Shown here: in pieces, positions 22,023 to 64,000 of the stretch
Position numbering within the stretch: position 1 is the first letter of the stretch
How the letters are laid out: every line of letters starts with the position of its first letter
Assembly (NCBI GenBank): GCA_002099625.1
Contig: GCA_002099625.1_4857.1
DNA: 64,000 nt
Reading direction: 5' to 3' (one strand)
Source of the DNA: Escherichia coli
GTDB lineage: Bacteria; Pseudomonadota; Gammaproteobacteria; Enterobacterales; Enterobacteriaceae
Notes under the pieces: generated by a model
Seen by the model: only the letters and a program-made list of their open reading frames with translations
Database searches by the model: none
What the model was told of the DNA's origin: nothing
Program-made: the position numbers and the translations under genes

Positions 22023-22033
22023 GTTCCTTAGGC

Positions 22034-22061: not shown

Positions 22062-22074
22062 TAAATTATCTATA

Positions 22075-22445: not shown

Positions 22446-22588
22446 TAGCCGCGACCTGTGCACATGGCAACAGAGTTACCGTTATCGATGCATTTGTTGT
22501 AATCTTGAGTTACAGTGATAGACAGTACCGCGAAAGCAACAACAGCAACGATTGCGAAGATGGCACGTTTATGGTTACGAGTTAACAT
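22445..22588 (-). CDS. small single-pass membrane protein (47 aa), below the ORF-track size cutoff
   Basis: ATG at 22588 with AGGAG 8 nt upstream; MLTRNHKRAIFAIVAVVAFAVLSITVTQDYNKCIDNGNSVAMCTGRG; first gene after the 24-bp promoter motif. Confidence 0.4.
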   Translation of the reverse strand: MLTRNHKRAIFAIVAVVAFAVLSITVTQDYNKCIDNGNSVAMCTGRG

Positions 22589-22640
22589 GGTAATACTCCT
22601 TTAGCTTAATAGTCGATTGAGTTGATAGATTGTCTTCTAT

Positions 22641-22664
22641 CACCTAGGTAATATATATCTGAAA
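22641..22664 (-). promoter_or_regulatory. conserved element CACCTAGGTAATATATATCTGAAA (copy 1 of 2), putative phage promoter
   Basis: 24/24 identity with 31146-31169 and similar over ~40 bp; about 50 nt upstream of the ATG at 22588; minus-strand reading contains TATATATTAC. Confidence 0.5.
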
Positions 22665-22695
22665 TTATTTTTATTCAGAGTACACCCTCTATAAC

Positions 22696-22725
22696 GCTCT
22701 CAAACGCGTTTTGAGAGCTTTTATC
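22696..22725 (+). terminator. perfect 9-bp-stem hairpin with downstream TTTT on the plus strand, in an intergenic regulatory island
   Basis: GCTCTCAAA-cgcgt-TTTGAGAGC (22696-22718) followed by TTTTATCAC; no plus-strand gene upstream, so it may be an RNA structure or a binding-site palindrome rather than a terminator. Confidence 0.35.
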
Positions 22726-22727
22726 AC

Positions 22728-22786
22728 TTTAGAGGGTCGTTCTACCGTTAGAGTGGCTTTAGAAGGTTGTGTGTGCGTTTAGAGGG
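22728..22786. repeat. four imperfect direct repeats of TTAGAG(G/T)G-like units
   Basis: TTTAGAGGG (22728-22736), GTTAGAGTGG (22747-22756), TTTAGAAGG (22758-22766), TTTAGAGGG (22778-22786), spaced 11-20 bp. Confidence 0.45.
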
Positions 22787-22823
22787 CTAAAATAAAGAGA
22801 CCTGGTCTCACAAGGAGACCAGG
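22786..22823 (-). terminator. intrinsic terminator downstream of 22831..23628
   Basis: Hairpin CCTGGTCTC-acaag-GAGACCAGG (22801-22823) followed on the minus strand by TCTCTTTATTTTAGC. Confidence 0.6.
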
Positions 22824-22830
22824 CACACTT

Positions 22831-23628
22831 TTACATCAAATCCAGGCTCTGAGAGACCGCAACTTCCGGTTCACTGATGCCGCTGGTCACTGACAATGTA
22901 AAGCGACGATCGTTAATCACTTCAACTGCCTCGCTCGCACGCAGTGAATACTTATCGGCGATTGGCAGTACACTGTTATCGTTCTGTGGCGGCAGAATCT
23001 GTGCCGGGAACGGAATGTACGAGTTGAAAGTGATATACGGACCGACTTGCATCATCGGGAACACTTCGTTCACGTTATTCGACATCCCTTCATCCGAAGA
23101 GATAACGGAGTGACGCAGACAGGCACGCAAGCCAACGGTGTACTCCGGATCGCGCGATTCGCCGATCAGTGCGAAACGGAACACGTTGAAATCGTAGTCG
23201 TCTGCAGCGAAGTGTTCTGGCAGGATACGCTGTACGTATTCAGGGTAAGTGGTCACGTCACCCGGAATAACATTCACGGCGAGTTTCTGTGCCAGGAAAT
23301 ACGCATTCGCGAAACCGTACTGCCCCGCCAGCGCAGCTGATATCGGTGCAGTGGTTACGCAGTGCAGGAACAAGTGATAACCCAGCCCGCCTTTATCTTC
23401 GATTGCCAGGTCCTTCTTACTCTGCACACCGTCAGCAGTATAAATAACTGCCACTGTTTTATCCAACGTTGATGCCATGACAAAATCCAACTGCACCTCA
23501 CCGCTTTGCGGCAGTACCTTAACCAGGCGATCCCAGAGCTTGGTCGGTTTGGTGAAGTTAGCGGCTTCGTACGCATCAATGTCGAGAACAGTTTGGCCGG
23601 TCATGCGAAAGGTGTGAATCGCTTTCAT
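22831..23628 (-). CDS. hypothetical protein
   Basis: 265-aa ORF on coding strand. Confidence 0.55.
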   Translation of the reverse strand: MKAIHTFRMTGQTVLDIDAYEAANFTKPTKLWDRLVKVLPQSGEVQLDFVMASTLDKTVAVIYTADGVQSKKDLAIEDKGGLGYHLFLHCVTTAPISAALAGQYGFANAYFLAQKLAVNVIPGDVTTYPEYVQRILPEHFAADDYDFNVFRFALIGESRDPEYTVGLRACLRHSVISSDEGMSNNVNEVFPMMQVGPYITFNSYIPFPAQILPPQNDNSVLPIADKYSLRASEAVEVINDRRFTLSVTSGISEPEVAVSQSLDLM

Positions 23629-23671
23629 TGCAATATTTTCCTTAAGGTTACTTACGGGTCATACTAGATGA

Positions 23672-24985
23672 CTAAGCTGTAAATTTTTCATCTTTGAGCC
23701 AAAGACTCAGTTGTGATTGGGTGTTATAGCGTCCTGATGCCATCGTTTGACCGTCGACAGCAGACTGGAACACTTCACCCACCAACGTGCCGTAGCGGGT
23801 ATAGACCCCATACTCGTTGGCAAAAACGTATTTTACTGGCATACCGGGATATAGGATGCCGTGCGTTGATCGGTTCCAGGTTGTTTGCACAATCGTACCC
23901 AGACCCATCTCCAGTTTAGACCGCTGTGGTTTATCGGTATCGCTAAAGTGCTTATCAGGATCGATTGGTGCGTTAACCACACCACCTGGATACGCAGCAG
24001 GGTCGGCCTGTGCCACAAATTTATCAGGTGTGGTCATACTGATGTCGCCAGGCGTAAATGAACTACTACGCCCATCCAACACACGTACAGACCCTACCCG
24101 GTAACCCGTACCCTGGTTAAGCGCGGCCTGGTCACGGTATTCCAAACTACTGGTGTCGCCGCCACAAATCAGATAGATAACATTACCCGCGATATCGGTG
24201 GTGCGGTCAATGTGAGCAGCCTGTTCACGAGGCAAGTTATAAATGACCAGTTTAGGCTTCGTTGTGTTATTAAACTTCAACGAGTCCCAAGGTCGATACA
24301 GATACCATCGTTGTAGGTATTGGAAGACCCCAATACCTTTGCTGTAAACACCGTAATGGTTCTGCAGATAATCAAACACGCTTAAGAAGTCTTCGGAGTC
24401 TGGTATAACGATGTCCCGATATGCCTGCTGTTCTTCTTCATCGTATTCAATCCCTTTCAACTGCCCCTCTGCAGCCACCCCTTCCGGCAACGTATCCGCC
24501 AATATCGAGCGAGCCACTGTTAACCCATCTGTTTCGTGGTAGATGCCGCCCACTTGACGATTACGCAGGAACCACATCGACTCATCCATCAGCTCCAATG
24601 TTACCAATGCGATAGATTTCTCATCAGACTGACTCAAGAACATCGTCGGTGATTCCGCGTTGTGGTCGCGGTTATTTATCACGATGCCGCGGTAGTTAAA
24701 GACCCCTGCGATTTTCTGTCCACGACGCAGTAACAGCTTTACCTTCAAATCCCCTTCTGCGGACGATGTGATCATTCGCATGTGGCTGTAGGGGATAGCC
24801 AAGGTGAGATGTGTCAATAAACAGATATCACGCGTAAAGTGACCGGTGTGAATGATAGACAGCATCTTCAACACCGTCACTGGGGCACCGTGCACCGTGA
24901 GGAATATCCCGTAGTCGATAGCCGGTAACCCCCGAGCATTAGCGATGTGACCGTTCGCCATCTGTTGTAACCGACCAAACGACAT
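23672..24985 (-). CDS. hypothetical protein (437 aa)
   Basis: Long ORF on coding strand; no motif recognised. Confidence 0.55.
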   Translation of the reverse strand: MSFGRLQQMANGHIANARGLPAIDYGIFLTVHGAPVTVLKMLSIIHTGHFTRDICLLTHLTLAIPYSHMRMITSSAEGDLKVKLLLRRGQKIAGVFNYRGIVINNRDHNAESPTMFLSQSDEKSIALVTLELMDESMWFLRNRQVGGIYHETDGLTVARSILADTLPEGVAAEGQLKGIEYDEEEQQAYRDIVIPDSEDFLSVFDYLQNHYGVYSKGIGVFQYLQRWYLYRPWDSLKFNNTTKPKLVIYNLPREQAAHIDRTTDIAGNVIYLICGGDTSSLEYRDQAALNQGTGYRVGSVRVLDGRSSSFTPGDISMTTPDKFVAQADPAAYPGGVVNAPIDPDKHFSDTDKPQRSKLEMGLGTIVQTTWNRSTHGILYPGMPVKYVFANEYGVYTRYGTLVGEVFQSAVDGQTMASGRYNTQSQLSLWLKDEKFTA

Positions 24986-25524
24986 TAGCGACCTCCTCGG
25001 GCTCTATAAGCGTACTCAATACGTTTCATAATCGTATCATTAAAACGGTGGAGTTTAGACTCCAGGCGGACCTGTCCAAATAACGACTGAACACAGTCCG
25101 CCATCGTTGCGGTGGGTTTCTTGAAATACCCGTAGCGGTTAGCCACAGGAAACAGTTTCGAAGCCAGCACATTGAACTGACGCAACCCTTCGATAGGGAC
25201 TTCCCGGTAAATCAGCGTCGGGTTCTCCAGATAGTTCAGCCAGTCCGCAAGGTGTTCCATAATCCACCCGTACACTTTAATCCCGTCATGCGGGTCGTGT
25301 ACATCCAACGCACCACCTGTCGCTAAATACTCGGCAGCTTCTGAGGGGTGCAGATAGATAGGCTTCATGTTCAGTAACAACGCTTGTCGTTTCTTCGGGT
25401 CTTCTGGCAAGAACAATCCGTGTTCCTGACTGGCGTAGGTTGTGATGGTTGCGTATTCCGGTACCCGGAAGAACACCCACGCTTTAAACAGCATAAATGC
25501 TGCACTGCGCTTCTTCTCCGACAT
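24985..25524 (-). CDS. hypothetical protein
   Basis: 179-aa ORF, overlap-coupled to neighbours. Confidence 0.5.
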   Translation of the reverse strand: MSEKKRSAAFMLFKAWVFFRVPEYATITTYASQEHGLFLPEDPKKRQALLLNMKPIYLHPSEAAEYLATGGALDVHDPHDGIKVYGWIMEHLADWLNYLENPTLIYREVPIEGLRQFNVLASKLFPVANRYGYFKKPTATMADCVQSLFGQVRLESKLHRFNDTIMKRIEYAYRARGGR

Positions 25525-30280: not shown

Positions 30281-30338
30281 TATAAATACTCCTTACGATT
30301 AATGGTCGATTACATACGGTTTCAGGCTAACGTAATAT

Positions 30339-34490: not shown

Positions 34491-35423
34491 TTAGACCAGA
34501 CCGTATTTTTTCTCCAGACGTTCACGTTTGTACTTGAGTTCCATCAAACGCTTTTCGTGCGCTTCGATGAGTTTCTCAATGTGCACGTCCCCTTCACCGG
34601 CAGCCAGTTGTTTCTTGTACAACAGAATACGCAGCTCAGTCGCTTTCGCGGCTTCCACGCACTCGTCGTAACGATCCATTTGCCATTCTGCAATGTTCAG
34701 ACGCACGCGGTAAATAATCGACAGCGGGAACGGAACGGAGGACATACCCAGTGGGTCAGTGGTGTTCGAACCGAACTGCTGAACCAATTGGCTATATGTC
34801 TCTTCGTCAAACACCGCTTCAGGTATCTCAGCGTAGTCTGCTTTCAGTTTGGTAATGGGGGTTGCCAGGACGCGCACCGCAATACAGAAAGACGTCTTAC
34901 GAGTTTGCAGATACTGAAGGTCTTTCGGACCGATTCCCTTCACTGCAATGTTCGAGTCTTGTACAGCGGCAATCTCTTCGGCCGTGATGTAGTTAATCAG
35001 GGTGCTAGCGTAACCGACGAAGAATTCGATCATATCCAGCAACTGCAACACGGTTTGTTTGTTGAACGTTAGAGATGATGTCACTAACGTCTTCCCGATG
35101 TCGCGGTCGATACACTGCTCCAGGAAAGGTCGCAGCGCCTGTACGTTCTGCATAGACGCGATGACGTACTCCAGCATACTTGCGTTACGTAACCCTTTAA
35201 CTTCCAAACCGGAGCTATGCAGGTACTTAACGATTTCAGTAGAAAGGTCAGCAACAGGCTTCGCTTTAAATGGCTTACCCTGGATACTTCCTACCAGTTC
35301 CTGGAGGTTCTGGAACTGTGGCTCTAACGCAGCAATCGAGTCGCAGTTAGATGACAGTTGGTTTTTTAAGTTCGTGGCTTCGAAGCTCGGCAGCAACATC
35401 GCCAACATATTCGGAATCGGCAT
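34491..35423 (-). CDS. hypothetical protein
   Basis: Track ORF starts at 35468 and overlaps the upstream gene by 35 nt; the ATG at 35423 (MPIPNMLAML...) just after the upstream stop is the likelier start. Confidence 0.5.
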   Translation of the reverse strand: MPIPNMLAMLLPSFEATNLKNQLSSNCDSIAALEPQFQNLQELVGSIQGKPFKAKPVADLSTEIVKYLHSSGLEVKGLRNASMLEYVIASMQNVQALRPFLEQCIDRDIGKTLVTSSLTFNKQTVLQLLDMIEFFVGYASTLINYITAEEIAAVQDSNIAVKGIGPKDLQYLQTRKTSFCIAVRVLATPITKLKADYAEIPEAVFDEETYSQLVQQFGSNTTDPLGMSSVPFPLSIIYRVRLNIAEWQMDRYDECVEAAKATELRILLYKKQLAAGEGDVHIEKLIEAHEKRLMELKYKRERLEKKYGLV

Positions 35424-35433
35424 TCTTTTCCCC

Positions 35434-36552
35434 TTACAGTACCGGATTCGCGCCGACGCGATAGGCATCGATGATTTTGTTTACATCGCCGCTACCGGAC
35501 TTCGCCTTGCTAAAGTCTGATTTGTCGAGTTCTTGAGACCCGGTCTGACCACGCGTATAAATGGTTACACGGTTCCAGGTCTGGTCGACAACCACGTAGT
35601 AAACAGTCAGGGTGTCTTTGAACACACGCTGGCGGATATTGTAATCATCGAAGTCACCGCCCAGCTGAGCAGTCAGATCGTCGATAGTTTCTTGAGAAAC
35701 CACCATAACCGAAGACGCGTTGTTGATGGATGGGCTCAGCGTCAGCAGGCCAGACAGCCAGTTGGCGTTTTTCTTTTCCATCATCTTACGGTAATAACCG
35801 GACTTATCACGGAAGCGGTTCTTACGGTATTCTTCAATGAGGTCATTACACAGCGCGATATCTTTCGCGTAGCTGAGAGAACCGACCTTCGCACGCAGCA
35901 CACGTTCCCAGAAGGTTTTGGTTTGATCGCTGAACGCAATGAGCGTTTTCATTTCGTCGGTCGGCAGAGACTTCACATCAAGACGCAGACGCATCGGCAG
36001 CTCGACTTTATTACCGTCACGTTCGAAGGTAACAGAGAACACTTTACCGTTGGACAGACCTTCTTGATCATGCAGGAGCTTCAGCGTGTTGTTCGGCAGC
36101 ACAGAACCTGCGGACGATTCAGTCGCTACTTTGTTATCGGATTTCTGGCGACGGGATTCACCGACCGCAAGCCCGATTTTATCGTATGACGGCAGCGCGT
36201 GACGGGAGGACTCGCCGATTGCGAAAGACGCTAAGCGAGAACCCGAACGTGCAGCCGCGTCGAGGGCATTACGACGGGTGCTAACCTGGTCAAGCGTACC
36301 AAGGATATCAACCTCAGGAACACCTACCAGAATTGAGATGGCGGTAAGTTGGTTGCCCGCGAGCAGGATTTGGATTTTCTCCAGAATACCTGGCAGGTAA
36401 TCTAAGCCCAACAGACTTTGTTCAACCAGCGTGGTGTGCTCGTTGTACAGCACAGAGTTGAATTCTTCCGTCGATTCCGCCCGCTGGCGAAGCAGCATGG
36501 GAAACTTAGAAAGAAAGGAGACGAGCGATGTCTCAAATGTTTTTTCTGCCAT
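35434..36552 (-). CDS. hypothetical protein (372 aa)
   Basis: ATG at 36552 with GGAG on the minus strand inside the palindrome CTCCGGAG shared with the divergent plus-strand gene. Confidence 0.55.
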   Translation of the reverse strand: MAEKTFETSLVSFLSKFPMLLRQRAESTEEFNSVLYNEHTTLVEQSLLGLDYLPGILEKIQILLAGNQLTAISILVGVPEVDILGTLDQVSTRRNALDAAARSGSRLASFAIGESSRHALPSYDKIGLAVGESRRQKSDNKVATESSAGSVLPNNTLKLLHDQEGLSNGKVFSVTFERDGNKVELPMRLRLDVKSLPTDEMKTLIAFSDQTKTFWERVLRAKVGSLSYAKDIALCNDLIEEYRKNRFRDKSGYYRKMMEKKNANWLSGLLTLSPSINNASSVMVVSQETIDDLTAQLGGDFDDYNIRQRVFKDTLTVYYVVVDQTWNRVTIYTRGQTGSQELDKSDFSKAKSGSGDVNKIIDAYRVGANPVL

Positions 36553-52462: not shown

Positions 52463-54056
52463 GTGATTTCCTTACAACGTAGGGGGATGTCGCGATACGG
52501 AACGACAATACGACATCCTTGAGTGATTTCTGGCGGGCATTCAGGTAATTGCAATGCTTCGGTACGTTATACGCATGGAATAACCACACCGTTGGGTCTA
52601 TTTCACCCCATTCGTTGTGGAGAATCTTACGTGGACGACCGGCCATCTGTTCGTTCAGTTGCTGGTCTTCTACCGGGGTTGAAATGTACATGTGTACCAA
52701 CCCAGGTTTATCGACCGCAGTCCCCGCTTTCCCCGGTGTGGAGATAGAGAAGTCTGCTTGGATAAAGTCGTCATACGAATCGCCTGCATTATATTTCGCC
52801 ACCATCAACGGATGGAATACAGGGTCACGCGATAACTTATCTTTCACATACTCGGTAAAGAACTCACACATCGCTACCGTAGCAAAGAGTATCAAACATT
52901 TTTGGCCAGGTTGATACCGTTTAAGGAACGATTTCTCAACCACATCCCAGATCATGTTCGCGTATTCTAAATGCAAGTTCTCTTTAATCAGCTTCCCTTC
53001 GAAGAGTTTGTGGTTATACGGCGTCATCTTCGACGCCCACCACGCAAACTTCTTATCATCCAGTCGATAGTACAACGCCTTCACGTCAACCACCGGAATG
53101 ATTGGAATACTGATTCGGTACTCCATTGGGAAACGTTCTAAATACCGCTCCGCGATAAAGGCTTTACTGCTACCCGGCTTAAGGGTTGCAGACATCTCTA
53201 TCGATGCCGGAGGGTTCAACATTATACCAGCCATGTAAACGAGGTGAAAATGCTCGTGCACCTCATCCATCGCCACCAGACCCACACCCAGAACATCATA
53301 AAACGTATCCAGGTCCACAGGGTTAGTCGCAGCAGTGTTAATGTACTCCTTCAGGAAACGCTGTAGAGAGACCGTGGGGAGGATTATTACCTTAATACCA
53401 CGACTATCTAACTCTCCCGACTTACCCATCTCCAGCGCGTCGTAAATCGCCTGTACGCCTGTACAAACTAACACCTCGTCACGAAGTATACGAAGTCCTG
53501 TTTCATCATCACAGACGTCAAACAGCCATTTGGGAACGTACGACGGACGGTGAATCAATGCGGTACGGGTTCCCCGTTTAACCATCGACTTCATACACGA
53601 CTTCGTCTTCCCACGACCTGTCTGAATGGCGAAGATTGTCTGTGGTCGGTTTGGATCGGACGCTGCATCCACAACCTCGTTCTGATAGTAGAAACGCGAC
53701 TCCGGATCGCTTTCTACCATCGAGAAGCCGTAGTTATCAAATGTACAGCAGTAAGGTGTTCCTCGCTCAGGATGGTGCTCTGTCAGCTTGTACTGAAAAG
53801 CATATTCAATTGCTGCTCGTTGGAGGATATGTTTAATCTTCTCAGCGAACACTTTATGGAAAATGAACGTCCTTAAAGACGGAATGTGGGCGTAGTACGC
53901 GTCACCGCGTTCCGTAGTTATTCGTCCATGTTGCTTGCCCATCTTTGGGGCGTGCATATTCTCTTCGGCCCACGCGAGTATGGCCCTTTCAGCCTGGCGG
54001 ATAGGGACTTCAACCCGTACCCCCATACTCGTGTAAGTCATTTGAATTTCTACCAT
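52350..54056 (-). CDS. superfamily-2 DExH-box helicase
   Basis: Walker A AIQTGRGKTKS; Walker B/DExH LVAMDEVHEH; motif III MSATLK; motif VI-like QMAGRPRK. Track start at 54113 translates the terminator hairpin; the ATG at 54056 (MVEIQMTYTS...) is the likelier start. Confidence 0.7.
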   Translation of the reverse strand: MVEIQMTYTSMGVRVEVPIRQAERAILAWAEENMHAPKMGKQHGRITTERGDAYYAHIPSLRTFIFHKVFAEKIKHILQRAAIEYAFQYKLTEHHPERGTPYCCTFDNYGFSMVESDPESRFYYQNEVVDAASDPNRPQTIFAIQTGRGKTKSCMKSMVKRGTRTALIHRPSYVPKWLFDVCDDETGLRILRDEVLVCTGVQAIYDALEMGKSGELDSRGIKVIILPTVSLQRFLKEYINTAATNPVDLDTFYDVLGVGLVAMDEVHEHFHLVYMAGIMLNPPASIEMSATLKPGSSKAFIAERYLERFPMEYRISIPIIPVVDVKALYYRLDDKKFAWWASKMTPYNHKLFEGKLIKENLHLEYANMIWDVVEKSFLKRYQPGQKCLILFATVAMCEFFTEYVKDKLSRDPVFHPLMVAKYNAGDSYDDFIQADFSISTPGKAGTAVDKPGLVHMYISTPVEDQQLNEQMAGRPRKILHNEWGEIDPTVWLFHAYNVPKHCNYLNARQKSLKDVVLSFRIATSPYVVRKSHAHSAASSRAAATLHRNDFSKFSRKHSKGVSRRRRRR

Positions 54057-54102: not shown

Positions 54103-56208
54103 TTACAACTCAATTACCACAGCGGCTCCTAGGTCATCGTACAACGATGCCGGGATTTTGTACTCGGTATAAAAACCAACGCGATCGATATTCCCCTGCT
54201 GTCCTTCAAACAACAACATCGGAATTGCCGAGCGCAAACTAATGAGCGTGTTGTGATCGACAAACCGTTTCCCGGTGGCATTAGTAGAATCCTCACTGTC
54301 AAATCCTACTGCCGGGAACGGATTGGTTGGCGACTCTACACGAGATATCGCCAACATAATCGCAATATGCGTCATCGGTATACCACTCAGCTTACGCTGG
54401 ATATACTTAAACGTGTCCATCAACGCATAAGTACACTGTTTCTCTGTAGCACCACCCATCTCAACCAACGTCACTGGTTTCACACGACCTTGTTTCTTGT
54501 TCAGCTTCACAGTCGATGCCGTGTTGATGATTTCCACAATGTCTTCGTTCTTATCGGCAGCAATCGAACGGAGCTTGGTTTCTAAGCCGGCTACGAACTC
54601 TGCCATCGATTCAGAACGGTTGGTGTAGACCAGGACCGGGTGTTTCGGGTTCCATCCTTTTAAGGGGATTTCTACTGTCTTCTTCTCGATACGAATGTTC
54701 GCTCGTTGTTTCAAGAAGTAGTGCAGGAACGGTTTAGAGAAGTTCCCACAAACACCCATTCGCACATCGATAGAATCCGCAGCGATTATCTGCCCATCTT
54801 CTAAACGACGTTGGAAAGTTAAGTCGGTGATTTCTGGTAATGCCGTTTCATCAATTGCATCGAGATCTTCATGATACGCAATCTGGCTCAGCTCCGAATA
54901 AATTTTGTCGGTAACAACCAACTCGTATTCTGACCAATTCCCACGCTGTGGTTTTGGCAGCAAGCACAACCCTTTCAGAGAGTTATGTTTGTATTCGGTC
55001 ATATACTCACGCATACGTGGGGTGAGTACCAGGTTGAGCAGATAACGCAAGAAGTCAAGGTGCTTGGTAGAGAGAATTCCCTGTGTACCCTTTTCCGAGA
55101 TGGACGTGGACGCCAGGTGACCTGGTGACGTACCTTCAGAGAGGTTATAAATCAAATCCCCCATACAGGTCGCACAGATGGACTGATTCGCCATCTCTTT
55201 ACAGGTCATGGCACTACGGAAGACCAGCGGTTTGCCAACCAGGTCTGCGTATCCACCTTTCTCAAATCTCAACCACGGACCATTATCGCCTTCTAAACGA
55301 TAACGCATCCCCACCATCGCTTTATAGGCACGCTCATCCAGCTGCGTATCCTTAAACGTGTAGCGGTGTGCGTGAGTTGTACCGCAGTCGTCGTACGTGA
55401 AATACATCAGTACGTTTGCTGCCAACTGCAGTTTACGTGAGGCGTATTCTGCTTCGGCAATCTTGTCAGTGTTGTACAAGTGGGAACGTGAAGTTGCACC
55501 GGATTCTTTCAAACGCGAAATAACCGAGTGCATTCCGGTAAAGAAGCCTTCCCACACCTGATTGGTGTATACACGTGAGTCAATTTCTGACGTTTTACCA
55601 CGCACGAAGGCTTGCAGTACCTGGTTCATCTTCACAGTACCGTCCAGTACCGACATCACGACCGGGTTATACCGTAGCGCAGGGTCTTTGAAGATTTTCT
55701 CGATAAGCTTGTACGCTTCTTCAACCATATCCTGACCATCTTCATCGTAGCCAGTAGGGTATTGCACTTCCCACTGACGGATGAGTTCGAAGTTCGGGTG
55801 GTCGTAGATCTCCATCATCGTATCAAAGTCGATTGTCGTACAATAGGACAGCAAGTTCTTCACTGTCATGTTGAACGCATCGGCGTAGACATGTTGACTC
55901 AGGATATAACGCGTTTCAGCAAGGTCGACACCTGCTTTACGGGCCAGTACCGCTGCTTCCGACATAAAGTCCAGATGCAGGTCATCTGTTGCTACCTGAC
56001 CTGGACGATACGCCATGGTCGATGGAGTGGGCACCTGCGGATACAGACGCGACACACCCCAATACGGCCAGCTGAGTTTGATGTGGCGACTAGACATTTC
56101 CAACGACTTACCATCGTCGAATGTCACGTAATAACGCCCGCGTAGTTTCCACACCTGATCAGAGTTAAGCATACGCAAATCACGTACGTGTACAGAACGA
56201 CCCGCCAT
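54103..56208 (-). CDS. hypothetical large protein (701 aa); possible RNA polymerase beta-prime-like C-terminal fragment
   Basis: TAATG overlap with the RNAP beta fragment gene; EKGTQGILSTKH weakly resembles the beta-prime trigger-loop motif GTQLTMRTFH. The RNAP assignment is tentative and the NADFDGD motif is absent. Confidence 0.5.
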   Translation of the reverse strand: MAGRSVHVRDLRMLNSDQVWKLRGRYYVTFDDGKSLEMSSRHIKLSWPYWGVSRLYPQVPTPSTMAYRPGQVATDDLHLDFMSEAAVLARKAGVDLAETRYILSQHVYADAFNMTVKNLLSYCTTIDFDTMMEIYDHPNFELIRQWEVQYPTGYDEDGQDMVEEAYKLIEKIFKDPALRYNPVVMSVLDGTVKMNQVLQAFVRGKTSEIDSRVYTNQVWEGFFTGMHSVISRLKESGATSRSHLYNTDKIAEAEYASRKLQLAANVLMYFTYDDCGTTHAHRYTFKDTQLDERAYKAMVGMRYRLEGDNGPWLRFEKGGYADLVGKPLVFRSAMTCKEMANQSICATCMGDLIYNLSEGTSPGHLASTSISEKGTQGILSTKHLDFLRYLLNLVLTPRMREYMTEYKHNSLKGLCLLPKPQRGNWSEYELVVTDKIYSELSQIAYHEDLDAIDETALPEITDLTFQRRLEDGQIIAADSIDVRMGVCGNFSKPFLHYFLKQRANIRIEKKTVEIPLKGWNPKHPVLVYTNRSESMAEFVAGLETKLRSIAADKNEDIVEIINTASTVKLNKKQGRVKPVTLVEMGGATEKQCTYALMDTFKYIQRKLSGIPMTHIAIMLAISRVESPTNPFPAVGFDSEDSTNATGKRFVDHNTLISLRSAIPMLLFEGQQGNIDRVGFYTEYKIPASLYDDLGAAVVIEL

Positions 56209-58445
56209 TATTTATCCTCCCGAATTGGACGCACTAATTCAAAACCTTCACAGCGATGGATGTTACGTATCATCCTGTCAATCTGCGAATCACCCATTGG
56301 TAGTTTCTTACGATCGACCAGCACCCCTGGATTGGTTGGTGTTGGCGAGTTATACAGCCCCGTTACGATCGCACGGTGTACCGCTGGGTTATTAGCGCGG
56401 TCATGAGTTTCGGGGAAGTTGCCCGGACCAAAGCCGTCGGTAAGACGCTGCTCGGAAGGACCACCCCACTTCAACCCTTTCAGGTTAATCGGATATGAAC
56501 CACGTCCTTGGTTGGATGCATCAATACAACCCAAATAGTTCGTGTACATCGACGAGATACTGGAGAACTCACGACCGGTTTTATCCAGGCGCAGAGTCTC
56601 TACCATGCCGACGTAGAACTGGTTCTTCGTCCACTCTTTCTCACCCTGATAGTTAGTAATCAGTAGCTTAGACTTGCGTGGTGCATACTCGCCTAGAGCA
56701 CGGCAGATTTCTACCTGGGTGGCATTCAATTCGTGGGGAAGCCAGATACGAATCGTGAAGTCGTAAATCTCTTTAAAGAGTTCCAGACGTGACCCAGTAT
56801 CCGGGTGACTGGCATTGAGATAGAATGTCCAGCGTGGGTTATAGCGATCGATATAGTCCATCAGGATTTCCCAGGCTTCATCAACCTGGTTGGCGGCAAG
56901 TAATGGTTTCAACCGCATCTTCAACTGCTCGGATGCAGCAGACCAATACATGTGGAACAGCGCAGCATAAGTCGAACGACGAATTACGGCGTTCATGGAA
57001 CGAATGACATGCACACGTTCTCCGAACTCGTTAATCGGCATTTCTTCATCAGGCCGCACTGCGCCCACGATACCTTTTGTACCTGAACGGTCGGTGATTT
57101 TCGATGAGACGGTAACTGGGATTGGATAACGTACCACGATGCGTATCGTGTAACTACCAATTGGGTCCCAGAGACCACGCTGAACCGGCTGCGCCAGTTT
57201 GTTCAACACGTTCTTATCAGCAGAACGGTTATACTCGCCTTTGCGCATGGCTTCATCGTATTCACGACCAATCTCTTCACGGAAGTCGTTATAGACTTCA
57301 TACGTCTCAGAACAGAACGCCTTGTCGAGAATCTCAAACGCTTTCGGTGACCAGACAATATTCTTGTCCTTGGACATCGCAAAATAGAACCGCACGATAT
57401 CATTGTAAAAACGTTTCAAAGCGTTCGCGTAGTGATCTAACTCGCGTTTGTTCTCTTCGGTACATGCGATATTGTTAACACCACGATCGCATTTGGTTTC
57501 GTCCCGCCATACCTGAATATCAACGACACGAGAACCAGTACGTTCCATCTTTTCAAAGTCGCCAGCCTGACGCGCTTTGTAATGCTCAGGGTCGGCATCA
57601 ACATACTCACAACGGTCGAAGTGCGGAGAGATATGTTGTGTTTCGCCCACGTGTGAGTCAATAGCCGCCCACAGCTTATCGAAACGACGCGCGGCTATAA
57701 CCAACCCATCATCGCGAATTGCCTGTCCTTTATTGGGCAGGTACTGTGGTCGACGAACGCCATCAATACCCGTTGTCCCATACGTATCAAGCAGGTACTC
57801 GTCGTCGCGCAAGGTAAAGTCGATTGCACGCAAACCATAAGCGTGCATCGCCTTCGCTGCAGTTTCGGAGATGGTGTACGAGTCCTCGATAATGTCCGGG
57901 TGCGACATTGTCACAGTGTGCAGGTTGACCCCATCGACAAACTCACCGTCTTTCTGTGCCGGCAGCACGGTAAGCATTTCATCTTTTTCCAGGTGCTGAG
58001 TCTGCCCGCGCAGCAACGCCTGAAGTTTCCCAGTAGCCTCTTTCTTAGACGAGAAAATGTTATCGTGGTTGGTGTAATACTTGATATCGATTACATCAAT
58101 CATCACTTTGCGCTGGTTGGTTAAATCTGCGCGCGTGAAGAAGATAACATGTTGGAGCGGATCGTGATCCCCTTCACGACCATAGCGTGCAAAAACAGCT
58201 GCACGAGTAACACCTTCTTTGGTTGTGTAACTGCACACGGTACCACTATCTTCCACGATATCGTTAAAACAATAATCGTGGTAGTTCACATCAGCGCCGG
58301 TAAAATGGATAGTCGGGTCTGGATTGTCCAGTGGTACCGCCGACTTCATATGTCCACCCACCATTGAGGCACGTGCCCCAGATACGCCAGTGATATTCAC
58401 CTCACGGTCAGCAACGCTTGACATGAGTTCGACTGGTGTTTTCAT
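56208..58445 (-). CDS. multisubunit RNA polymerase beta subunit, C-terminal fragment (745 aa)
   Basis: DRSGTKGIVGAVRPDEEMPINEFGERVHVI aligns with the conserved bacterial RpoB block [30 protein letters not shown]; downstream LKGLKWGGPSEQR resembles LGGKAQFGGQR. ATG with AAGGAG RBS; promoter 15-mer 30 nt upstream. Confidence 0.65.
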   Translation of the reverse strand: MKTPVELMSSVADREVNITGVSGARASMVGGHMKSAVPLDNPDPTIHFTGADVNYHDYCFNDIVEDSGTVCSYTTKEGVTRAAVFARYGREGDHDPLQHVIFFTRADLTNQRKVMIDVIDIKYYTNHDNIFSSKKEATGKLQALLRGQTQHLEKDEMLTVLPAQKDGEFVDGVNLHTVTMSHPDIIEDSYTISETAAKAMHAYGLRAIDFTLRDDEYLLDTYGTTGIDGVRRPQYLPNKGQAIRDDGLVIAARRFDKLWAAIDSHVGETQHISPHFDRCEYVDADPEHYKARQAGDFEKMERTGSRVVDIQVWRDETKCDRGVNNIACTEENKRELDHYANALKRFYNDIVRFYFAMSKDKNIVWSPKAFEILDKAFCSETYEVYNDFREEIGREYDEAMRKGEYNRSADKNVLNKLAQPVQRGLWDPIGSYTIRIVVRYPIPVTVSSKITDRSGTKGIVGAVRPDEEMPINEFGERVHVIRSMNAVIRRSTYAALFHMYWSAASEQLKMRLKPLLAANQVDEAWEILMDYIDRYNPRWTFYLNASHPDTGSRLELFKEIYDFTIRIWLPHELNATQVEICRALGEYAPRKSKLLITNYQGEKEWTKNQFYVGMVETLRLDKTGREFSSISSMYTNYLGCIDASNQGRGSYPINLKGLKWGGPSEQRLTDGFGPGNFPETHDRANNPAVHRAIVTGLYNSPTPTNPGVLVDRKKLPMGDSQIDRMIRNIHRCEGFELVRPIREDK

Positions 58446-58511: not shown

Positions 58512-58835
58512 ATGCTAGATAAATTTGCTACCTTATCCGAAATAATACCTTCGCCTGATTCGACCAAGTATAAGGTGTTGCATGACTATACAGACTTCCT
58601 TCGCAAACACCCAGATACTACAGAAGAAGTTGTTGACCCAAAATATGCCTACCCAGAGGTACACAGTTTCTACGCGTACTGTCGTCTCAAACAGTACGAT
58701 AATAGTATTATTTATCCGATGATGTTAATGAACGGAATTTCTACTCCGTTTGATTTCACGCCAGAGATAAGGACCTTATTGGTTCCTAGTGTCGGTGTGG
58801 TAAGTAACATCTTATCGACTATCGTAGAATCTTGA
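58512..58835 (+). CDS. hypothetical small protein (107 aa), visibly more AT-rich than its neighbours
   Basis: ATG with AAGGAGAG RBS; lone plus-strand gene; lower GC and different codon usage by eye. Confidence 0.5.
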   Translation: MLDKFATLSEIIPSPDSTKYKVLHDYTDFLRKHPDTTEEVVDPKYAYPEVHSFYAYCRLKQYDNSIIYPMMLMNGISTPFDFTPEIRTLLVPSVGVVSNILSTIVES

Positions 58836-58866
58836 AAAAAAGAAGGGACGCCCAGTCCCTTCTTTC
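58834..58866. terminator. terminator hairpin between convergent genes
   Basis: Hairpin GAAGGGAC-gccca-GTCCCTTC (58842-58862) with an A-run upstream (U-tract for the minus strand) and a weak TTTCT downstream. Confidence 0.5.
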
Positions 58867-58872
58867 TAACGC

Positions 58873-60240
58873 TTAACGTAAATTAGCTGATGAGAATGGT
58901 AGGTTGCCTAAACTGCTGCTACTTCCGCCACCTAAACCACCCAGACCACCTAACACGTCACTACTCCCTCCTAAGAGGTTGGTGCTACCGCCGCCCAACT
59001 GCGTGCTACCCCCCAAGAGATTATTACTACTTCCCAGCAAACCAGAACCCAGACCACTTTCTTTCGTCACCGCATTACCACGCAGCGCCTCACCGAGAGA
59101 CAGTTCTTTAATTGTCCCTTTCGGTAAATGGCCGTTGTTCTCACGCAGCGCTTCCTGAATCTTCGGTGCTAACGCATTGAAGCTATTAGCTGAAGACGCC
59201 TGTTGCGCTTTCTTCGCACGGAAATAGTTTACCGGATCGTTGAGATCAAGATTTTCCTGCGGAGCTTGTTGAGAAGCTAAAGCAACGACCGGCTTTGTGC
59301 CGGCAGGTGTACGCCCGATACGGAAATCCGTTGCGGTGGTGTCTGTTGCCTGATCGGTGCGTGGGCCGGTATTATACGGCAGAGTTTGGATAACGTTATC
59401 ATAAACGCTCATGTTATCCAGTTGGCCAATCCATTCTTCTTCTAACGGACGCAGTGGAGTGTGGTCACGCAGACCACGAACCACTTGATTGTAGTTGGTC
59501 ACGTATTGTGCCCAACCGCGTGCCAAAGAACCGAAGTACGGACGCGGATCGTTAGAACCCGTAACCGAAGGATACCAACCAAACACTGCAGTGAGCAGGT
59601 TAAAGATAATGACCTTATCCTGCTTACGCTGGAGCTTGGCACCGAAGAATGTTGCCGTACCATCCAGCGACTCTTCTTCAAACATGTGTTTGTAGTTCGC
59701 CACACGGATATATTTGATACCTTCAATGGTCATATCGCTGGAGATGAAGATACTGGTGATCTTTGTCTTTTTATCTTCTTCCAGCAACCCGTAAACGTAG
59801 TTCTTCACTGCGTGCCAGCTCTGAACCAGTTTCTTATCCATCGTTGGATCTTTCAGGTCAGCACAAACCACATCGCTTAAAAACTTCTTGTACGCTGCCA
59901 GACGGATATTTTTTCCTTCGGCTGCTGTTTCCAAAATCGCATCGATTAACTCGAAGCTTTTCAGGAAGAGGTTCGCGTTGATGGCTTTCTTCAGGAAACG
60001 AATCGTTCCAGATTCGCCAGCCAGTACCGATTCACACAGTGGGTGGAACGCATGACATTCACTACCTTCGTCATCTTCCAACCCACGCTTAATCATCGCT
60101 GCAGTTGGAAGCACCAAGCGGCGCTTCACTTTGTTGTAGGTGAACATTGCCGGATGACCATCATCGATAGTCAGCATGTCACCTTCGAATCCGTATCCGA
60201 GCGAGGTCAGAAACGAACGGTAGAATTCAATCAATTTCAT
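58873..60240 (-). CDS. hypothetical protein with Gly/Leu/Ser-rich low-complexity C-terminal tail (455 aa)
   Basis: C-terminal ~60 aa GLGSGLLGSSNNLLGGSTQLGGGSTNLLGGSSDVLGGLGGLGGGSSSSLGNL... Confidence 0.55.
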   Translation of the reverse strand: MKLIEFYRSFLTSLGYGFEGDMLTIDDGHPAMFTYNKVKRRLVLPTAAMIKRGLEDDEGSECHAFHPLCESVLAGESGTIRFLKKAINANLFLKSFELIDAILETAAEGKNIRLAAYKKFLSDVVCADLKDPTMDKKLVQSWHAVKNYVYGLLEEDKKTKITSIFISSDMTIEGIKYIRVANYKHMFEEESLDGTATFFGAKLQRKQDKVIIFNLLTAVFGWYPSVTGSNDPRPYFGSLARGWAQYVTNYNQVVRGLRDHTPLRPLEEEWIGQLDNMSVYDNVIQTLPYNTGPRTDQATDTTATDFRIGRTPAGTKPVVALASQQAPQENLDLNDPVNYFRAKKAQQASSANSFNALAPKIQEALRENNGHLPKGTIKELSLGEALRGNAVTKESGLGSGLLGSSNNLLGGSTQLGGGSTNLLGGSSDVLGGLGGLGGGSSSSLGNLPFSSANLR

Positions 60241-60252: not shown

Positions 60253-61953
60253 TTAATCAATGAGACCGTTGCCGAGTCCGTTTCCGCCTATACCGCCTAA
60301 GCCACCACCCAGGTCAAGACCTCCAAGAGGATCTAAGCCACCTGTGTTAGTTGGAATGTTAGATAGCATTCGACCCCGGCCTTGGCCTTTCTCGAATTCT
60401 GTATAACCTTCTTCCACGGCTTTCAACAGCGTTGCGGTGTTCTGTGCCAGCTCACCAACGTATTTGAGATCGGTGGTGTTGCCGGTATGGAGACGGAATT
60501 GCATAAACGACGCGTAGGTGTAATATTCCAGCGGTTCGTCGTCGACACGGATTTCAATACGAGTAACGGTCCCCAACAATGCGGTGACCAGCATGTGGCA
60601 GCGAATATGGTTATGTTTAGTAACCTGAACCATCGCTTCTTTCATGTTCTGCAAGAAACGACGACCTAATGCAGCAGGTAACTGATGGTGCGTGATGCTG
60701 CTGACTGAGTTAGGAATAACTTCCAACGTAGGCTCTATCATGATATCTGTGTTGCGGTTATCAAAGACAAAGCTCACTTCACCAATCAGGTTACGTGACA
60801 TAATCGGCCCGATAGACATAGCCAGATCATACGCAACTAGACTACCCTGCGTGGAGAAGCCATTACGTCCAATCCAGTGGTCGGTTTGGTTAACCAGCCC
60901 TGCACCCAACCCACGGCGACTTGCCAGCGCCAGCGATTCACGGATACATTCATCCAACCGCATTGGGTTGACAATCGCATTACGCAAATCAGCCAAACGG
61001 AACGTCGCCTTACTGGTTGCTTTCCAACCGCCAGATACATCAGACATCCCGTTCTGGAGTGCTTGACGCATCGCAGCAATCAGTTCGTGGTTGCTGTAGT
61101 TACGGATAACACCACGCTGCTTCAATTCAGATTCAACGCCGATGGAGTTATTACCTGCAAAGAAGCTTTCCACGCTACCGAGTTCGGTATCTACCCCAGA
61201 GCTTGCCAGATACGCATTACTGATGGCAGATACGTAGTTTTCTGGACGCTGGAGTTGGGATACCATCAACTGTGGTGCAGAGCTACTGGTTGCGGATAGC
61301 ACAGAGTCGCTCGTTGGGACGAACTTCTCACCGCTATTCATTTCAATACGTTTTACCATGTCCGCTGCTTTCGCGATCGAAATGATATCTACCGTACTTT
61401 CTGTTTGACCTTCAACAGACAGCGCTTTCGATAAAACGTAGTTATCCAGTAGACGGAATGAGTCTGGGTTCAATGTTTTGCCGCCCAGGGCATCGTGTGT
61501 ATACGTTGCCTGTAAGCCGTAGATGTCGTTAATGTACAACACCATATCGTCCGGCAGCAGGCTACCCAGGCTGGTTTCTGCCTGACTGGTATAACCGGAT
61601 ACGATGTATTGCGTTTCCTGAGTGCGTGTTGCATTCAGAGGTTTAGCAATAAACACCGCCACGAAGTTAAAGATACCGGTATCACGTGATTCCCATTGGA
61701 ACTGTACAGGACGATTGTCATCATCGGACACGTTGATGAATGGACGCTCAAAACCATTCTGGGTGCCATCGAAGCCCACGATGGCAGATAATGCTTCTTG
61801 ATACTGCTGTGTTCCCACAGCTTTTTCCCCGCCCAGTTCAACCGCTGCTGCTAAGTCATCCAGTGCACCCGTCGATGCGTTAAAGCCGATGCGGCGACGA
61901 ACTTGCTCTGGAACATCGTAGACCGGATACATCAGTAGATTTACAAGCTGCAT
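60253..61953 (-). CDS. hypothetical protein with Gly/Leu-rich C-terminal tail (566 aa)
   Basis: C-terminus GGLDPLGGLDLGGGLGGIGGNGLGNGLID; adjacent to another Gly-tailed protein. Confidence 0.55.
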   Translation of the reverse strand: MQLVNLLMYPVYDVPEQVRRRIGFNASTGALDDLAAAVELGGEKAVGTQQYQEALSAIVGFDGTQNGFERPFINVSDDDNRPVQFQWESRDTGIFNFVAVFIAKPLNATRTQETQYIVSGYTSQAETSLGSLLPDDMVLYINDIYGLQATYTHDALGGKTLNPDSFRLLDNYVLSKALSVEGQTESTVDIISIAKAADMVKRIEMNSGEKFVPTSDSVLSATSSSAPQLMVSQLQRPENYVSAISNAYLASSGVDTELGSVESFFAGNNSIGVESELKQRGVIRNYSNHELIAAMRQALQNGMSDVSGGWKATSKATFRLADLRNAIVNPMRLDECIRESLALASRRGLGAGLVNQTDHWIGRNGFSTQGSLVAYDLAMSIGPIMSRNLIGEVSFVFDNRNTDIMIEPTLEVIPNSVSSITHHQLPAALGRRFLQNMKEAMVQVTKHNHIRCHMLVTALLGTVTRIEIRVDDEPLEYYTYASFMQFRLHTGNTTDLKYVGELAQNTATLLKAVEEGYTEFEKGQGRGRMLSNIPTNTGGLDPLGGLDLGGGLGGIGGNGLGNGLID

Positions 61954-61965: not shown

Positions 61966-63600
61966 TTAAGAATTAAACCATTCAACTTCTTCTAACTTGC
62001 GACGTGCATTCAACACCATAAACTCCGCCAGGCTATTGTGCAGTGACAAGTGAGGTATATAGTTTGGCTGATCCGTCTCACACTTCAGCAGCGCAGCTGC
62101 TTCTGGTGTAGCCCTGAGATGGAACAGATACGGGTTGATGTGATCCTTGTGTAACAAGGTCAGTGATTCCCGTGGTGTAGATTGCGGTTCGAGATTACGC
62201 GGGTTGCGATACTCCTGAAGATAATATCTATCTAAATCTGCTTTGAGTTCAGATCGAATTGGGTCGGCTGCATAACCGGCAGACATCTCAGAACGCACCA
62301 TATTGCAACTTAACAGTTGCGCAACGTCATACATTCCATAATTGAGATAAGTTGCCTGTGCCAACGCCATACCGTAGCGAAACGCTTCTGGCCCACATTC
62401 AGTATACGTCTTATAATGCGCGCTACGATGGAGTGCTAATGCGACTAACCATTCGTGCAACGTATAGACAGGACCGTCATGTGTTGCCAGTTGCGAATCA
62501 ATCAATAACTTAACATCTGCTGGAGCGGCATTATCCAGACGCATTGTTTTCAAGAAAGAGCGGTATTCTTTAAATACGTACTCGGTACGGACGTATTCTT
62601 TCATCTGTGCAGGAGAACGTGCCTGCACCAAATCCATGGCGTTTATCTTACCCTTTTCGCCATTGAATACCACACTTTCCGGATGCGCTTTTAACAGCAC
62701 CGGCTGGTTAGAGATTTTGTTTGCAAAACCTGTTTCAATCTCTTGTTTAACCAGAAAATACATGCCGGTGACGATATTGTTGTTAACCATGATTTCAACC
62801 GGTAATTCACCACCGACTTCACGGACAGCCAACAATTTAATAATAGCATACGCCAGGATATAATCTTCCATCATATCCGTGCCATAGCCCCGCACCGTAG
62901 CCAGTACCGACAAACTGGTGCTGTTCGTACCTTTGTTTGCCAGTTCTTTTTCTACCTTTTCCATCACTGTCTGTAGGAACCCACGCAGTTTCGGAATAGC
63001 AGGTAAAGACATGACTTCCGTGTCTTGAAGCATCTCCAGACAGTATGTCAGATTGTACACCATTTTCCGGTGTGTTTCGATTGGCAAGTTCTTACCTATC
63101 GGGAACGTCCCCATGGTGAGGAACACCGGAATATACGGTTTAATCATCAGAACCAGTATCAACAACTCGTAATAGTCCGGACGAATGTACGTCATCGCTT
63201 CCGGATAATTACTGTTCATTTCATCGTGCGTATCTTCCATGTTCTGCGGAATCCACAGCTTATCGATGGGATACAGCTTACGATACACTTCGGCCTTGTG
63301 GAACTTCGCAATCGTCTGCACAATCTTCGGCATGTGCTTACGCTGCGTTTCCGTCGATTCGTTTGCCAGCTCGTCCAGCATCAGATACGCCATGAACAGT
63401 TCATCTTGTTCGTCTGGCGTTAAATAATCCCACACGCGTTGTAATTCCATGAAGAGAATGTTGTCGCGTGCAATCTGTTTACCTTTAACAGTGATGTAGT
63501 CGGGTGCGTTGTTATCCTTCCGATAACGTAAGCCAATAAATGTGACCTCTTGACCGTGATGCTCGATTGTCATCCGGTCTTTAATCTTCGTAATTTTCAT
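61966..63600 (-). CDS. hypothetical protein (544 aa)
   Basis: ATG with GGAG RBS; promoter 15-mer 34 nt upstream; one further 15-mer copy is embedded in its 3' coding region. Confidence 0.55.
   Translation of the reverse strand: MKITKIKDRMTIEHHGQEVTFIGLRYRKDNNAPDYITVKGKQIARDNILFMELQRVWDYLTPDEQDELFMAYLMLDELANESTETQRKHMPKIVQTIAKFHKAEVYRKLYPIDKLWIPQNMEDTHDEMNSNYPEAMTYIRPDYYELLILVLMIKPYIPVFLTMGTFPIGKNLPIETHRKMVYNLTYCLEMLQDTEVMSLPAIPKLRGFLQTVMEKVEKELANKGTNSTSLSVLATVRGYGTDMMEDYILAYAIIKLLAVREVGGELPVEIMVNNNIVTGMYFLVKQEIETGFANKISNQPVLLKAHPESVVFNGEKGKINAMDLVQARSPAQMKEYVRTEYVFKEYRSFLKTMRLDNAAPADVKLLIDSQLATHDGPVYTLHEWLVALALHRSAHYKTYTECGPEAFRYGMALAQATYLNYGMYDVAQLLSCNMVRSEMSAGYAADPIRSELKADLDRYYLQEYRNPRNLEPQSTPRESLTLLHKDHINPYLFHLRATPEAAALLKCETDQPNYIPHLSLHNSLAEFMVLNARRKLEEVEWFNS
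62219..62233 (-). promoter_or_regulatory. conserved 15-mer AGATAATATCTATCT (copy 4 of 5), embedded in coding sequence
   Basis: Exact 15-mer inside 61966..63600 (encoding DRYYLQ), about 265 nt upstream of the start of 60253..61953; candidate internal promoter. Confidence 0.4.
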
Positions 63601-63634
63601 TATAGTTGAACTCCGCGAATAGTCGATTGCACTG

Positions 63635-63649
63635 AGATAATATCTATCT
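63635..63649 (-). promoter_or_regulatory. conserved 15-mer AGATAATATCTATCT (copy 5 of 5), putative phage promoter
   Basis: Exact 15-mer 34 nt upstream of the ATG at 63600. Confidence 0.55.
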
Positions 63650-63696
63650 CAATCTTCTTACAGTGTGTGTTGCAGGACCACGCATAAGCGTTAATA

Positions 63697-63735
63697 GCCC
63701 AAGGTTTCCCTTGGGCGTATTTTTTATTTTGTTTC
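63697..63735 (+). terminator. hairpin plus T-tract oriented for the plus strand, located just past the stop of a minus-strand gene
   Basis: GCCCAAGG-tttc-CCTTGGGC (63697-63716) followed on the plus strand by GTATTTTTTATTTTGTTTC; on the minus strand it is preceded by an A-tract and lacks a U-tract. Confidence 0.45.
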
Positions 63736-64000
63736 TTAGAGGAATTCGTCGTAAGAATCAGTGGTTGCTGGAGGTGCAGATTGTTGCTGTTGATAACCGC
63801 CGCTACGCTGACCGCCACCCTGGCCACCGCCGTATCCGCCACGACCGAAGCTACCACCACCTTGCTGGAATTCACGCGGCTTATATTTCTCTTCCAGGTT
63901 CTGTAAGAACTTCTCGAAGTTAGTGATAAACGCACGTGCACAGCGCTCAGCAAGTTCTAAATCAGAAACCTGCTGGCCGTCGCGGAAAATACGGAAACCT
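63736..64000 (-). CDS. protein with Gly/Gln-rich RGG/YGG-type tail and acidic C-terminal tip (N-terminus outside window)
   Basis: Frame read by hand: ...NLEEKYKPREFQQGGGSFGRGGYGGGQGGGQRSGGYQQQQSAPPATTDSYDEFL-stop. Differs from the track ORF 63600..63953, which runs across the promoter and hairpin in another frame. Confidence 0.45.
   Translation of the reverse strand, partial: GFRIFRDGQQVSDLELAERCARAFITNFEKFLQNLEEKYKPREFQQGGGSFGRGGYGGGQGGGQRSGGYQQQQSAPPATTDSYDEFL

Follow-up and report, generated by a model that had tools for sequence, protein, structure and literature searches.

The window analysed here is a stretch of DNA of 64,000 nucleotides, and the junction described below lies close to its right-hand end, between two genes that are both encoded on the minus strand. 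The region 62000-64000 shares 99% identity with approximately 34 jumbo phages of the SPN3US type (Seoulvirus), among them Escherichia phage EC001 (MN445185.1), and from this sequence match the window is assigned to an SPN3US-like jumbo phage, that is, a phiKZ-related member of Seoulvirus. It aligns in reverse complement with EC001 between approximately 24851 and 89652, and therefore its minus strand is the main gene strand in the deposited genomes; it is called the gene strand below. The entire EC001 genome (240,200 bp, 269 CDS) was used as the genome-wide control. Compared with the window, at 53609-53617, EC001 has about 1.05 kb extra within the helicase CDS (record positions 35234-36280), possibly an intein or a mobile insertion. 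The window segment 14846-15472, located in a 232-residue gene (14838-15536), is without counterpart in EC001. A search of the literature found no transcriptome of SPN3US-type phages.

The features of the junction are collected in Table 1. The upstream gene codes for a protein of 216 amino acid residues with a Gly-rich C-terminus, which matches phrog_3284, a family of unknown function (PHROG match, E = 6e-65); searches of Pfam and the PDB with this protein gave no match. Its TAA stop codon occupies 63736-63738. The upstream operon comprises the genes from approximately 16806 to 25115 in EC001 numbering. The downstream protein matches PHIKZ068 of phiKZ in tblastn (E = 3e-7, with 78% of the query covered) and also a gene of KTN4 annotated as 'non-virion RNAP subunit', while phmmer relates it to the chain 7ogp_B in the PDB (E = 2.8e-6). 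By these similarities the product is identified as a predicted PHIKZ068-like subunit of a non-virion RNA polymerase of the phiKZ type. When IMG/VR was scanned with this protein, SPN3US itself was the sole return. Five neighbouring proteins found nothing in Pfam and only function-unknown families in PHROGs.

Table 1. Coordinates of the features at the junction and of the related leader boxes in the window.
Feature	Position	Strand	Basis or remark
Upstream gene, 3' part	63736..64000, runs past window end	minus	EC001 annotation ACEC001_0320
A-rich spacer from stop codon to hairpin, GAAACAAAATAAAAAATAC on the gene strand	63717..63735	minus	sequence
Stem-loop GCCCAAGG-GAAA-CCTTGGGC, gene-strand reading	63697..63716	minus	sequence, folding, conservation
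TTATGCG box, 9 nt 3' of the hairpin	63681..63687	minus	conserved as YTATGYG
Predicted early promoter, virion-RNA-polymerase type, facing lower coordinates	63623..63657, core 15-mer 63635-63649	minus	PWM, consensus
5' leader of downstream gene	63601..63634	minus	box ATCGACTAT at 63619-63627; ribosome-binding site GGAG at 63611-63614
Downstream gene, predicted 544-residue PHIKZ068 homologue	61966..63600	minus	tblastn, phmmer, phrog_3209
Box ATCGAC(C/T)AT, copies	63619-63627, 22609-22617, 30302-30310, 56015-56023	minus	pattern match
Box ATCGAC(C/T)AT, intragenic copy	58814-58822	plus	pattern match

The 15-mer AGATAATATCTATCT at 63635-63649 belongs to a repeated element, which has nine matches in the window when up to three mismatches are allowed, against 0.84 expected; seven copies of the early promoter are present in the window. 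Read on the gene strand, the sequence GATTGAGATAGATATTATCTCAGTGCA matches the published early-promoter consensus, which is TTTCARRYAKATATTATYWAAGTG in N1M2/OBP and TATATTAC in phiKZ, is directional and has been predicted in related jumbo phages (PMC7058600). All jumbo phages with their own RNA polymerases have an AT-rich element centred near -10 of the early genes, and according to a review this element must be recognised by the virion polymerase (PMC7598289). A PWM was derived from 22 curated EC001 promoter copies, which share the asymmetric 35-nt consensus aaaaTTTC-AGATAGATATTATCT-aaGTGAg. Every one of these copies is oriented with the gene strand. Intergenic DNA contains 20 of them, and the distance to the following ATG is mostly 30-60 nt. 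In the EC001 genome the PWM gives 24 gene-strand matches with 10 bits or more, versus 4 on the opposite strand. The copy at the junction has no upstream TTTC and is among the lower scorers, with 32.0 bits in the forward direction (24.3 bits in the leave-one-out calculation) and only -0.4 bits as its best reverse score. In the reverse reading the invariant T at motif position 10 is broken, and the TTTC and GTG flanks are absent. The copy thus agrees with its class in the consensus match and in the many intergenic, co-oriented copies located shortly upstream of genes. As judged from this sequence asymmetry, the promoter is predicted to direct transcription leftwards into the PHIKZ068-like gene and away from the hairpin. 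The presence of an early promoter ahead of a non-virion polymerase subunit gene is itself a prediction of the known transcription scheme.

This orientation bears directly on a suggestion of the earlier note on this DNA, namely that the 15-mer, followed within 50 nt by a hairpin, might produce a short plus-strand RNA. Both elements are present with a gap of 47 nt, but the promoter faces away from the hairpin, and therefore no short plus-strand RNA should originate from it; the arrangement of promoter, 47 nt and terminator fails as a short-RNA unit because the promoter has the opposite orientation. Such a transcript would be about 70 nt long (approximately 63652-63725), with the hairpin and its T-run as terminator. 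The 11-nt core AGATA-N-TATCT is indeed palindromic and reads in reverse at 13-19 bits at four other promoters, short RNAs made from a promoter with a close terminator are documented in phiKZ and 201phi2-1 (PMC10914365, PMC11512511), and the candidate RNA folds at z = -3.3. However, besides the negative reverse score and the co-orientation of all curated promoter copies with the genes, the 47-nt spacer is the least conserved stretch of the junction. No Rfam 15 family reached its gathering score anywhere in the window, and a scan of 63500-63850 gave a single match at chance level (E = 0.28; 16.6 bits, the threshold being 43). We give this RNA hardly any credence.

Several related promoter arrangements were seen elsewhere. 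The four promoters with reverse scores of 13-19 bits are at window 14772-14786 and at EC001 7765, 16652 and 191161; since three of the four adjoin an oppositely oriented gene in divergent intergenic regions, they are possibly bidirectional. A genuine promoter-then-terminator element, like those giving the phiKZ short RNAs, is located at 164260-164330 of EC001 (MN445185.1), where a hairpin and T-run (GGCTACC-CTCG-GGTAGCC tattctttttt) lie 28 nt behind an early promoter and in the same orientation, within the 5' leader of the gene 164357-164758. Within the PHIKZ068-like reading frame itself there is a perfect early-promoter 15-mer on the minus strand at 62219-62233 (PWM 29.6 bits). It is positioned 265 nt ahead of the start of the next gene (60253-61953) and may be an internal promoter.

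The leader of the downstream gene contains the segment GCAATCGACTATTCGCGGAG, which is invariant across Seoulvirus and Erskinevirus. The box ATCGAC(C/T)AT found in this leader has five matches in the window compared with 0.98 expected. EC001 contains it 16 times (15 on the gene strand), and the nine intergenic copies are all 27-30 nt upstream of a start codon. The general context is aATCGACyATTAatcTAAGGAG...ATG, and some copies have no early promoter upstream. This box may represent another class of promoter, or an element of the leader.

The hairpin has a stem of 8 bp, including 6 G-C pairs, and a loop of 4 nt, and it can be extended to 63693-63720 with one bulge. In the plus-strand reading it is GCCCAAGG-TTTC-CCTTGGGC with the loop UUUC, and it is followed within 3 nt of the stem by the T-run GTATTTTTTATTTTG (63720-63730; 8 T in 9). 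The presence of this hairpin with a plus-strand T-tract amid minus-strand genes, as pointed out in the earlier note, is confirmed by the gene at 61966-63600 on one side and the gene ending at 63736 on the other. The T-run is the complement of the A-rich spacer that follows the upstream stop codon. On the gene strand the hairpin begins 19 nt 3' of the TAA codon, and its 3' flank, UAUUAACGC, has 3 U in 9. This flank is not a U-tract, and therefore poor termination is expected there by the rules for bacterial RNA polymerase. The calculated folding energy is -17.4 kcal/mol (z = -6.7) for the minus-strand RNA and -15.4 kcal/mol (z = -4.6) for the plus-strand RNA, so that the gene-strand structure is more stable by 2 kcal/mol.

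Judged by the usual definition of an intrinsic terminator, the plus strand has the stem-loop and the U-tract, but the hairpin is not downstream of a co-oriented unit or promoter on that strand; the plus-strand gene nearest to it, 58512-58835, has its own hairpin. The minus strand has the stem-loop shortly after a co-oriented stop codon, but not the 3' U-tract. The hairpin is not a classical bidirectional terminator because it is located between co-directional and not convergent genes: an A-tract is present on one side only, and the genes to the left and right are both minus-strand genes. No sigma-70 promoters were found on the plus strand near the hairpin, and phiKZ-type phages are reported to transcribe without the host polymerase (PMC10914365).

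It is important to compare this arrangement with the terminators used elsewhere by the phage. A scan for hairpins with a T-run covered the 90 intergenic regions between co-directional genes in EC001, 10.7 kb altogether, with dinucleotide shuffles as the control. Lenient criteria gave 41 sense-oriented and 7 anti-oriented sites, and strict criteria gave 32 and 2 (2/34), respectively, compared with approximately zero in the shuffles. The sense terminators mostly have UUCG loops. The phage thus uses conventional gene-strand hairpin and U-tract terminators, and a general mode of termination by an A-tract followed by a hairpin was rejected (32-41 conventional against 2-7 anti-oriented sites). The proposal in the earlier note of an unconventional minus-strand terminator with an upstream A-tract is consequently retained only in part: a stem-loop without a U-tract is conserved at the end of the operon, as described below, but the upstream A-tract is not the general mode of this phage.

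The strict anti-oriented pair consists of the junction hairpin and EC001 69836-69857, which is window 20649-20670. The latter has a UUCG loop and a T-run on the plus strand, and it is arranged back-to-back with a minus-strand terminator at 20706-20729. It is an ordinary plus-gene terminator because a 520-residue plus-strand helicase gene (18521-20083) is located upstream, with a first candidate terminator (20176-20203) between them. The earlier statement that the site 20649-20688 has no plus-strand gene was therefore mistaken. The site 22696-22725, which had been listed as a further hairpin of the same kind, is weak: the 23-nt near-palindrome at 22696-22718 has only a weak T-run, TTTTATCACTTT, and falls short of the terminator criteria applied here, and the same spacer also contains a conventional minus-strand terminator at 22800-22824. 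The other strong intergenic terminator-like sites on the plus strand of the window (9526, 20176, 20649, 40804 and 46252) all follow plus-strand genes. By the strict criteria, the hairpin at 63697 is the only strong plus-oriented hairpin with a T-run in the window without an upstream plus-strand gene. This orphan site may serve an unrecognised plus-strand transcript.

Some additional features of these spacers can be mentioned. Two paralogous minus-strand reading frames of about 48 residues with good ribosome-binding sites (20476-20622 and approximately 20217-20364, in the region 20084-20735) are located between the helicase stop codon and the distal terminator, and only one of them is annotated in EC001. 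The near-palindrome at 22696-22718 is surrounded by three to four copies, one inverted, of the boxes CCCTCTAAA / TTTAGAGGG. On the gene strand, this cluster (22684-22790) closely precedes an early promoter (22646-22660), and the repeated boxes could be regulator binding sites. The convergent genes 58512-58835 (plus) and 58873-60240 (minus) have a common hairpin at 58837-58867, with a strong T-run, TTTTTTT, for the minus-strand gene and a weak one, TTTCTAACG, for the plus-strand gene. Because the latter is weak, plus-strand read-through antisense to the following genes is conceivable.

Relatives of the junction were collected by tblastn against a phage collection and selected by their common gene order. 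The comparison included pEa_SNUABM_29 and SPAsTU (Seoulvirus, about 77% DNA identity), Asesino and phiEaH2 (Erskinevirus), Kwan (Wellingtonvirus), pEa_SNUABM_10, ChrisDB and Caitlin (Machinavirus), and Phobos and CR5 (Derbicusvirus). Eleven relatives, drawn from five genera, all carry a GC-rich stem-loop (8-11 bp) at the same position close behind the stop codon, and the early promoter comes 25-50 nt later. The sequences of the stems are wholly different between the genera. The stem pairs were counted in a loop-anchored alignment, as MAFFT misaligned the bare hairpins; all 80 of the 80 pairs are canonical, with 2-4 pair types at each of the 8 positions. The hairpins of the different genera could be independent replacements and not homologues. 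A similar association is found within EC001, where about 9 of the 22 early promoters have a hairpin 10-45 nt upstream on the gene strand, after the preceding stop codon.

The replacement of the stem sequence with retention of the pairing points to a nucleic-acid structure rather than a site for a sequence-specific protein. The inverted repeat might otherwise act as DNA, as a protein-binding palindrome or a cruciform that regulates the early promoter or the TTATGCG box, and its distances to the promoter (47 nt) and to the conserved box (9 nt), both of them downstream, would be suitable for such a role. The near-perfect palindrome at 22696-22718, with its flanking CCCTCTAAA boxes, is a comparable case. 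However, what is kept between the genera is the pairing, the GC-richness and a loop of 3-4 nt, and wobble pairs are found in Phobos and phiKZ, which makes a role at the level of DNA highly improbable.

Additional features of the relatives indicate which strand is read. The gene-strand loops include GAAA, GAGA, GAGA, UACG and UUCG, which are stable GNRA or UNCG tetraloops, in 5 of the 11 relatives, while none of the antisense loops is stable. The only wobbles, G-U in Phobos and U-G in phiKZ, both keep the stem paired in the gene-strand RNA, whereas the antisense RNA would have A-C mismatches there. A gene-strand U-tract was found in none of the 11 relatives, the nearest being AUUUCUAAC in Phobos. 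The YTATGYG box, 9-11 nt past the hairpin, is present in Seoulvirus, Erskinevirus, Wellingtonvirus and one Machinavirus despite the variable spacer; in Seoulvirus about half of the positions in the spacer after this box differ. The box resembles the core TATG of the phiKZ late promoter (motif in PMC7598289). As a genome-wide promoter class, TTATGYG was rejected, with 3-5 intergenic gene-strand copies compared with about 1.7 expected.

The antisense flank of the hairpin is T-richer in 9 of the 11 relatives, although to different degrees. It is T-rich in Seoulvirus and moderately so in Machinavirus. The A-run beside the stem is strong in Seoulvirus only; Erskinevirus, Wellingtonvirus and Machinavirus have it in a weaker form or at another position. 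The segment AAAAATAC adjoining the stem is invariant in three Seoulvirus lineages, with one A more in JN03. These data could be explained by a dedicated terminator for plus-strand, that is antisense, transcripts, in which case the hairpin would serve no separate purpose on the gene strand. The transcripts might come from putative promoters of the non-virion polymerase in or beyond the PHIKZ068-like gene, or by read-through from the gene 58512-58835, and the purpose would be to keep plus-strand RNAs from running antisense into the upstream early operon. The complete set of intrinsic features on the plus strand, the invariant Seoulvirus A-run and the T-richer flanks agree with this explanation, as does the weak T-run of the gene 58512-58835. 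In addition, transcript mapping in phiKZ and other phages has revealed antisense RNAs as well as terminators of antisense orientation (PMC10914365), and about 9% of the experimentally mapped phage terminators are antisense to genes (PMC10914365).

However, neither a plus-strand gene nor a recognisable plus-strand promoter was found upstream of the hairpin. The antisense reading frames that overlap the PHIKZ068-like gene begin and end at different places in the relatives pEa29 and SPAsTU, and a hidden plus-strand gene upstream of the hairpin was rejected for this reason. The T-run is missing in Derbicusvirus and phiKZ and is displaced by 7-8 nt from the stem in Erskinevirus, yet the hairpin persists in all of them. 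The stable tetraloops and the wobble pairs also favour the gene strand. A terminator dedicated to antisense transcripts is thus rather unlikely in our judgement. A more specific version, in which an antisense terminator was purpose-built at the 5' edge of the PHIKZ068-like gene, so that it would define a discrete plus-strand RNA complementary to the leader and promoter or block pervasive antisense transcription by the polymerases of the phage, we regard as improbable. If true, the element and the conserved TTATGYG box would together form a conserved regulatory node setting the amount of the non-virion RNA polymerase.

The anatomy of the junction, the orientation of the promoter, and the conservation and covariation of the stem are directly established. 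They allow us to propose, as the explanation that we favour on balance, a conserved gene-strand stem-loop at the end of an operon, placed before a directional early promoter and potentially acting also as an antisense terminator by means of its A-rich leader. The elements on the gene strand are arranged in the order phrog_3284 stop codon, 19-nt A-rich spacer, 8-bp GAAA stem-loop, TTATGCG box, early promoter (presumably recognised by the virion RNA polymerase), 34-nt leader and PHIKZ068-like gene. The stem-loop most probably works in the gene-strand transcript, where the RNA of the upstream operon would end with it; it could be a leaky terminator for the phage polymerases, or a hairpin protecting the 3' end. 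An operon-end element for the phage polymerases is preferred because the strand-specific features, tetraloops and wobbles, favour the gene-strand transcript. In Seoulvirus, the T-run would complete an intrinsic terminator on the plus strand, which may stop stray antisense transcription entering the upstream operon. This second role is plausible because the T-run is invariant in Seoulvirus and the plus-strand terminator is strong. A function in termination or at the 3' end, on either strand, is thus proposed from sequence features. The conserved A-run of Seoulvirus suggests selection on something that the gene-strand model leaves unexplained.

A leaky terminator or a 3'-protecting hairpin would fit this group of phages, since transcript ends in 201phi2-1 are often not predicted to be intrinsic terminators, 52 of the 132 mapped terminators being predicted as intrinsic (PMC11512511), and since the terminator motif of phiKZ is a stem-loop followed by TTAT and not by a long U-run (PMC10914365). 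The rules of termination by multisubunit phage RNA polymerases are poorly known, and the hairpin at this junction is a defined test case of how these unusual enzymes end or pause transcription. A usable regulatory map for SPN3US-type phages results from the promoter matrix taken together with the terminator census.

The comparison with known systems separates what is familiar in this junction from what is not. The promoter shows no essential difference from the early promoters of the phiKZ-related phages (PMC7058600, PMC7598289): the same extended sequence, the same asymmetry and many intergenic copies tens of nucleotides before genes are found, although the copy at 63635-63649 is without the upstream TTTC. 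The short leader RNAs of phiKZ (T102) and 201phi2-1 (PMC10914365, PMC11512511) are alike in having a promoter and a hairpin within 50 nt. However, in those phages the promoter and the terminator point the same way, the defining criterion being the same strand and less than 250 nt, while here they are opposite. The intrinsic terminators mapped by ONT-cappable-seq, including antisense and bidirectional ones (PMC10914365), are alike in the GC-rich stem-loop just after a stop codon. The difference is that here the U-tract is on the geneless strand and the gene strand has none, unlike the 32-41 EC001 terminators.

A further counterpart is the junction of PHIKZ067 and PHIKZ068 at positions 57905-57935 of phiKZ. 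It has the same gene order and layout: a 12-bp stem-loop, with a gene-strand U-G wobble in the stem but no U-tract, is placed 9 nt past the stop codon, and after about 45 nt come the early promoter TATATTAC and PHIKZ068. It differs in that the sequences are unrelated, no A-run precedes the stem, so that there is no antisense T-run, and TATG directly follows the stem. The phage, the type of promoter and the kind of junction are known, and the layout is standard for this phage group. The remaining oddity is a deeply conserved operon-end hairpin that has no U-tract of its own but carries, in Seoulvirus, a conserved antisense T-run.
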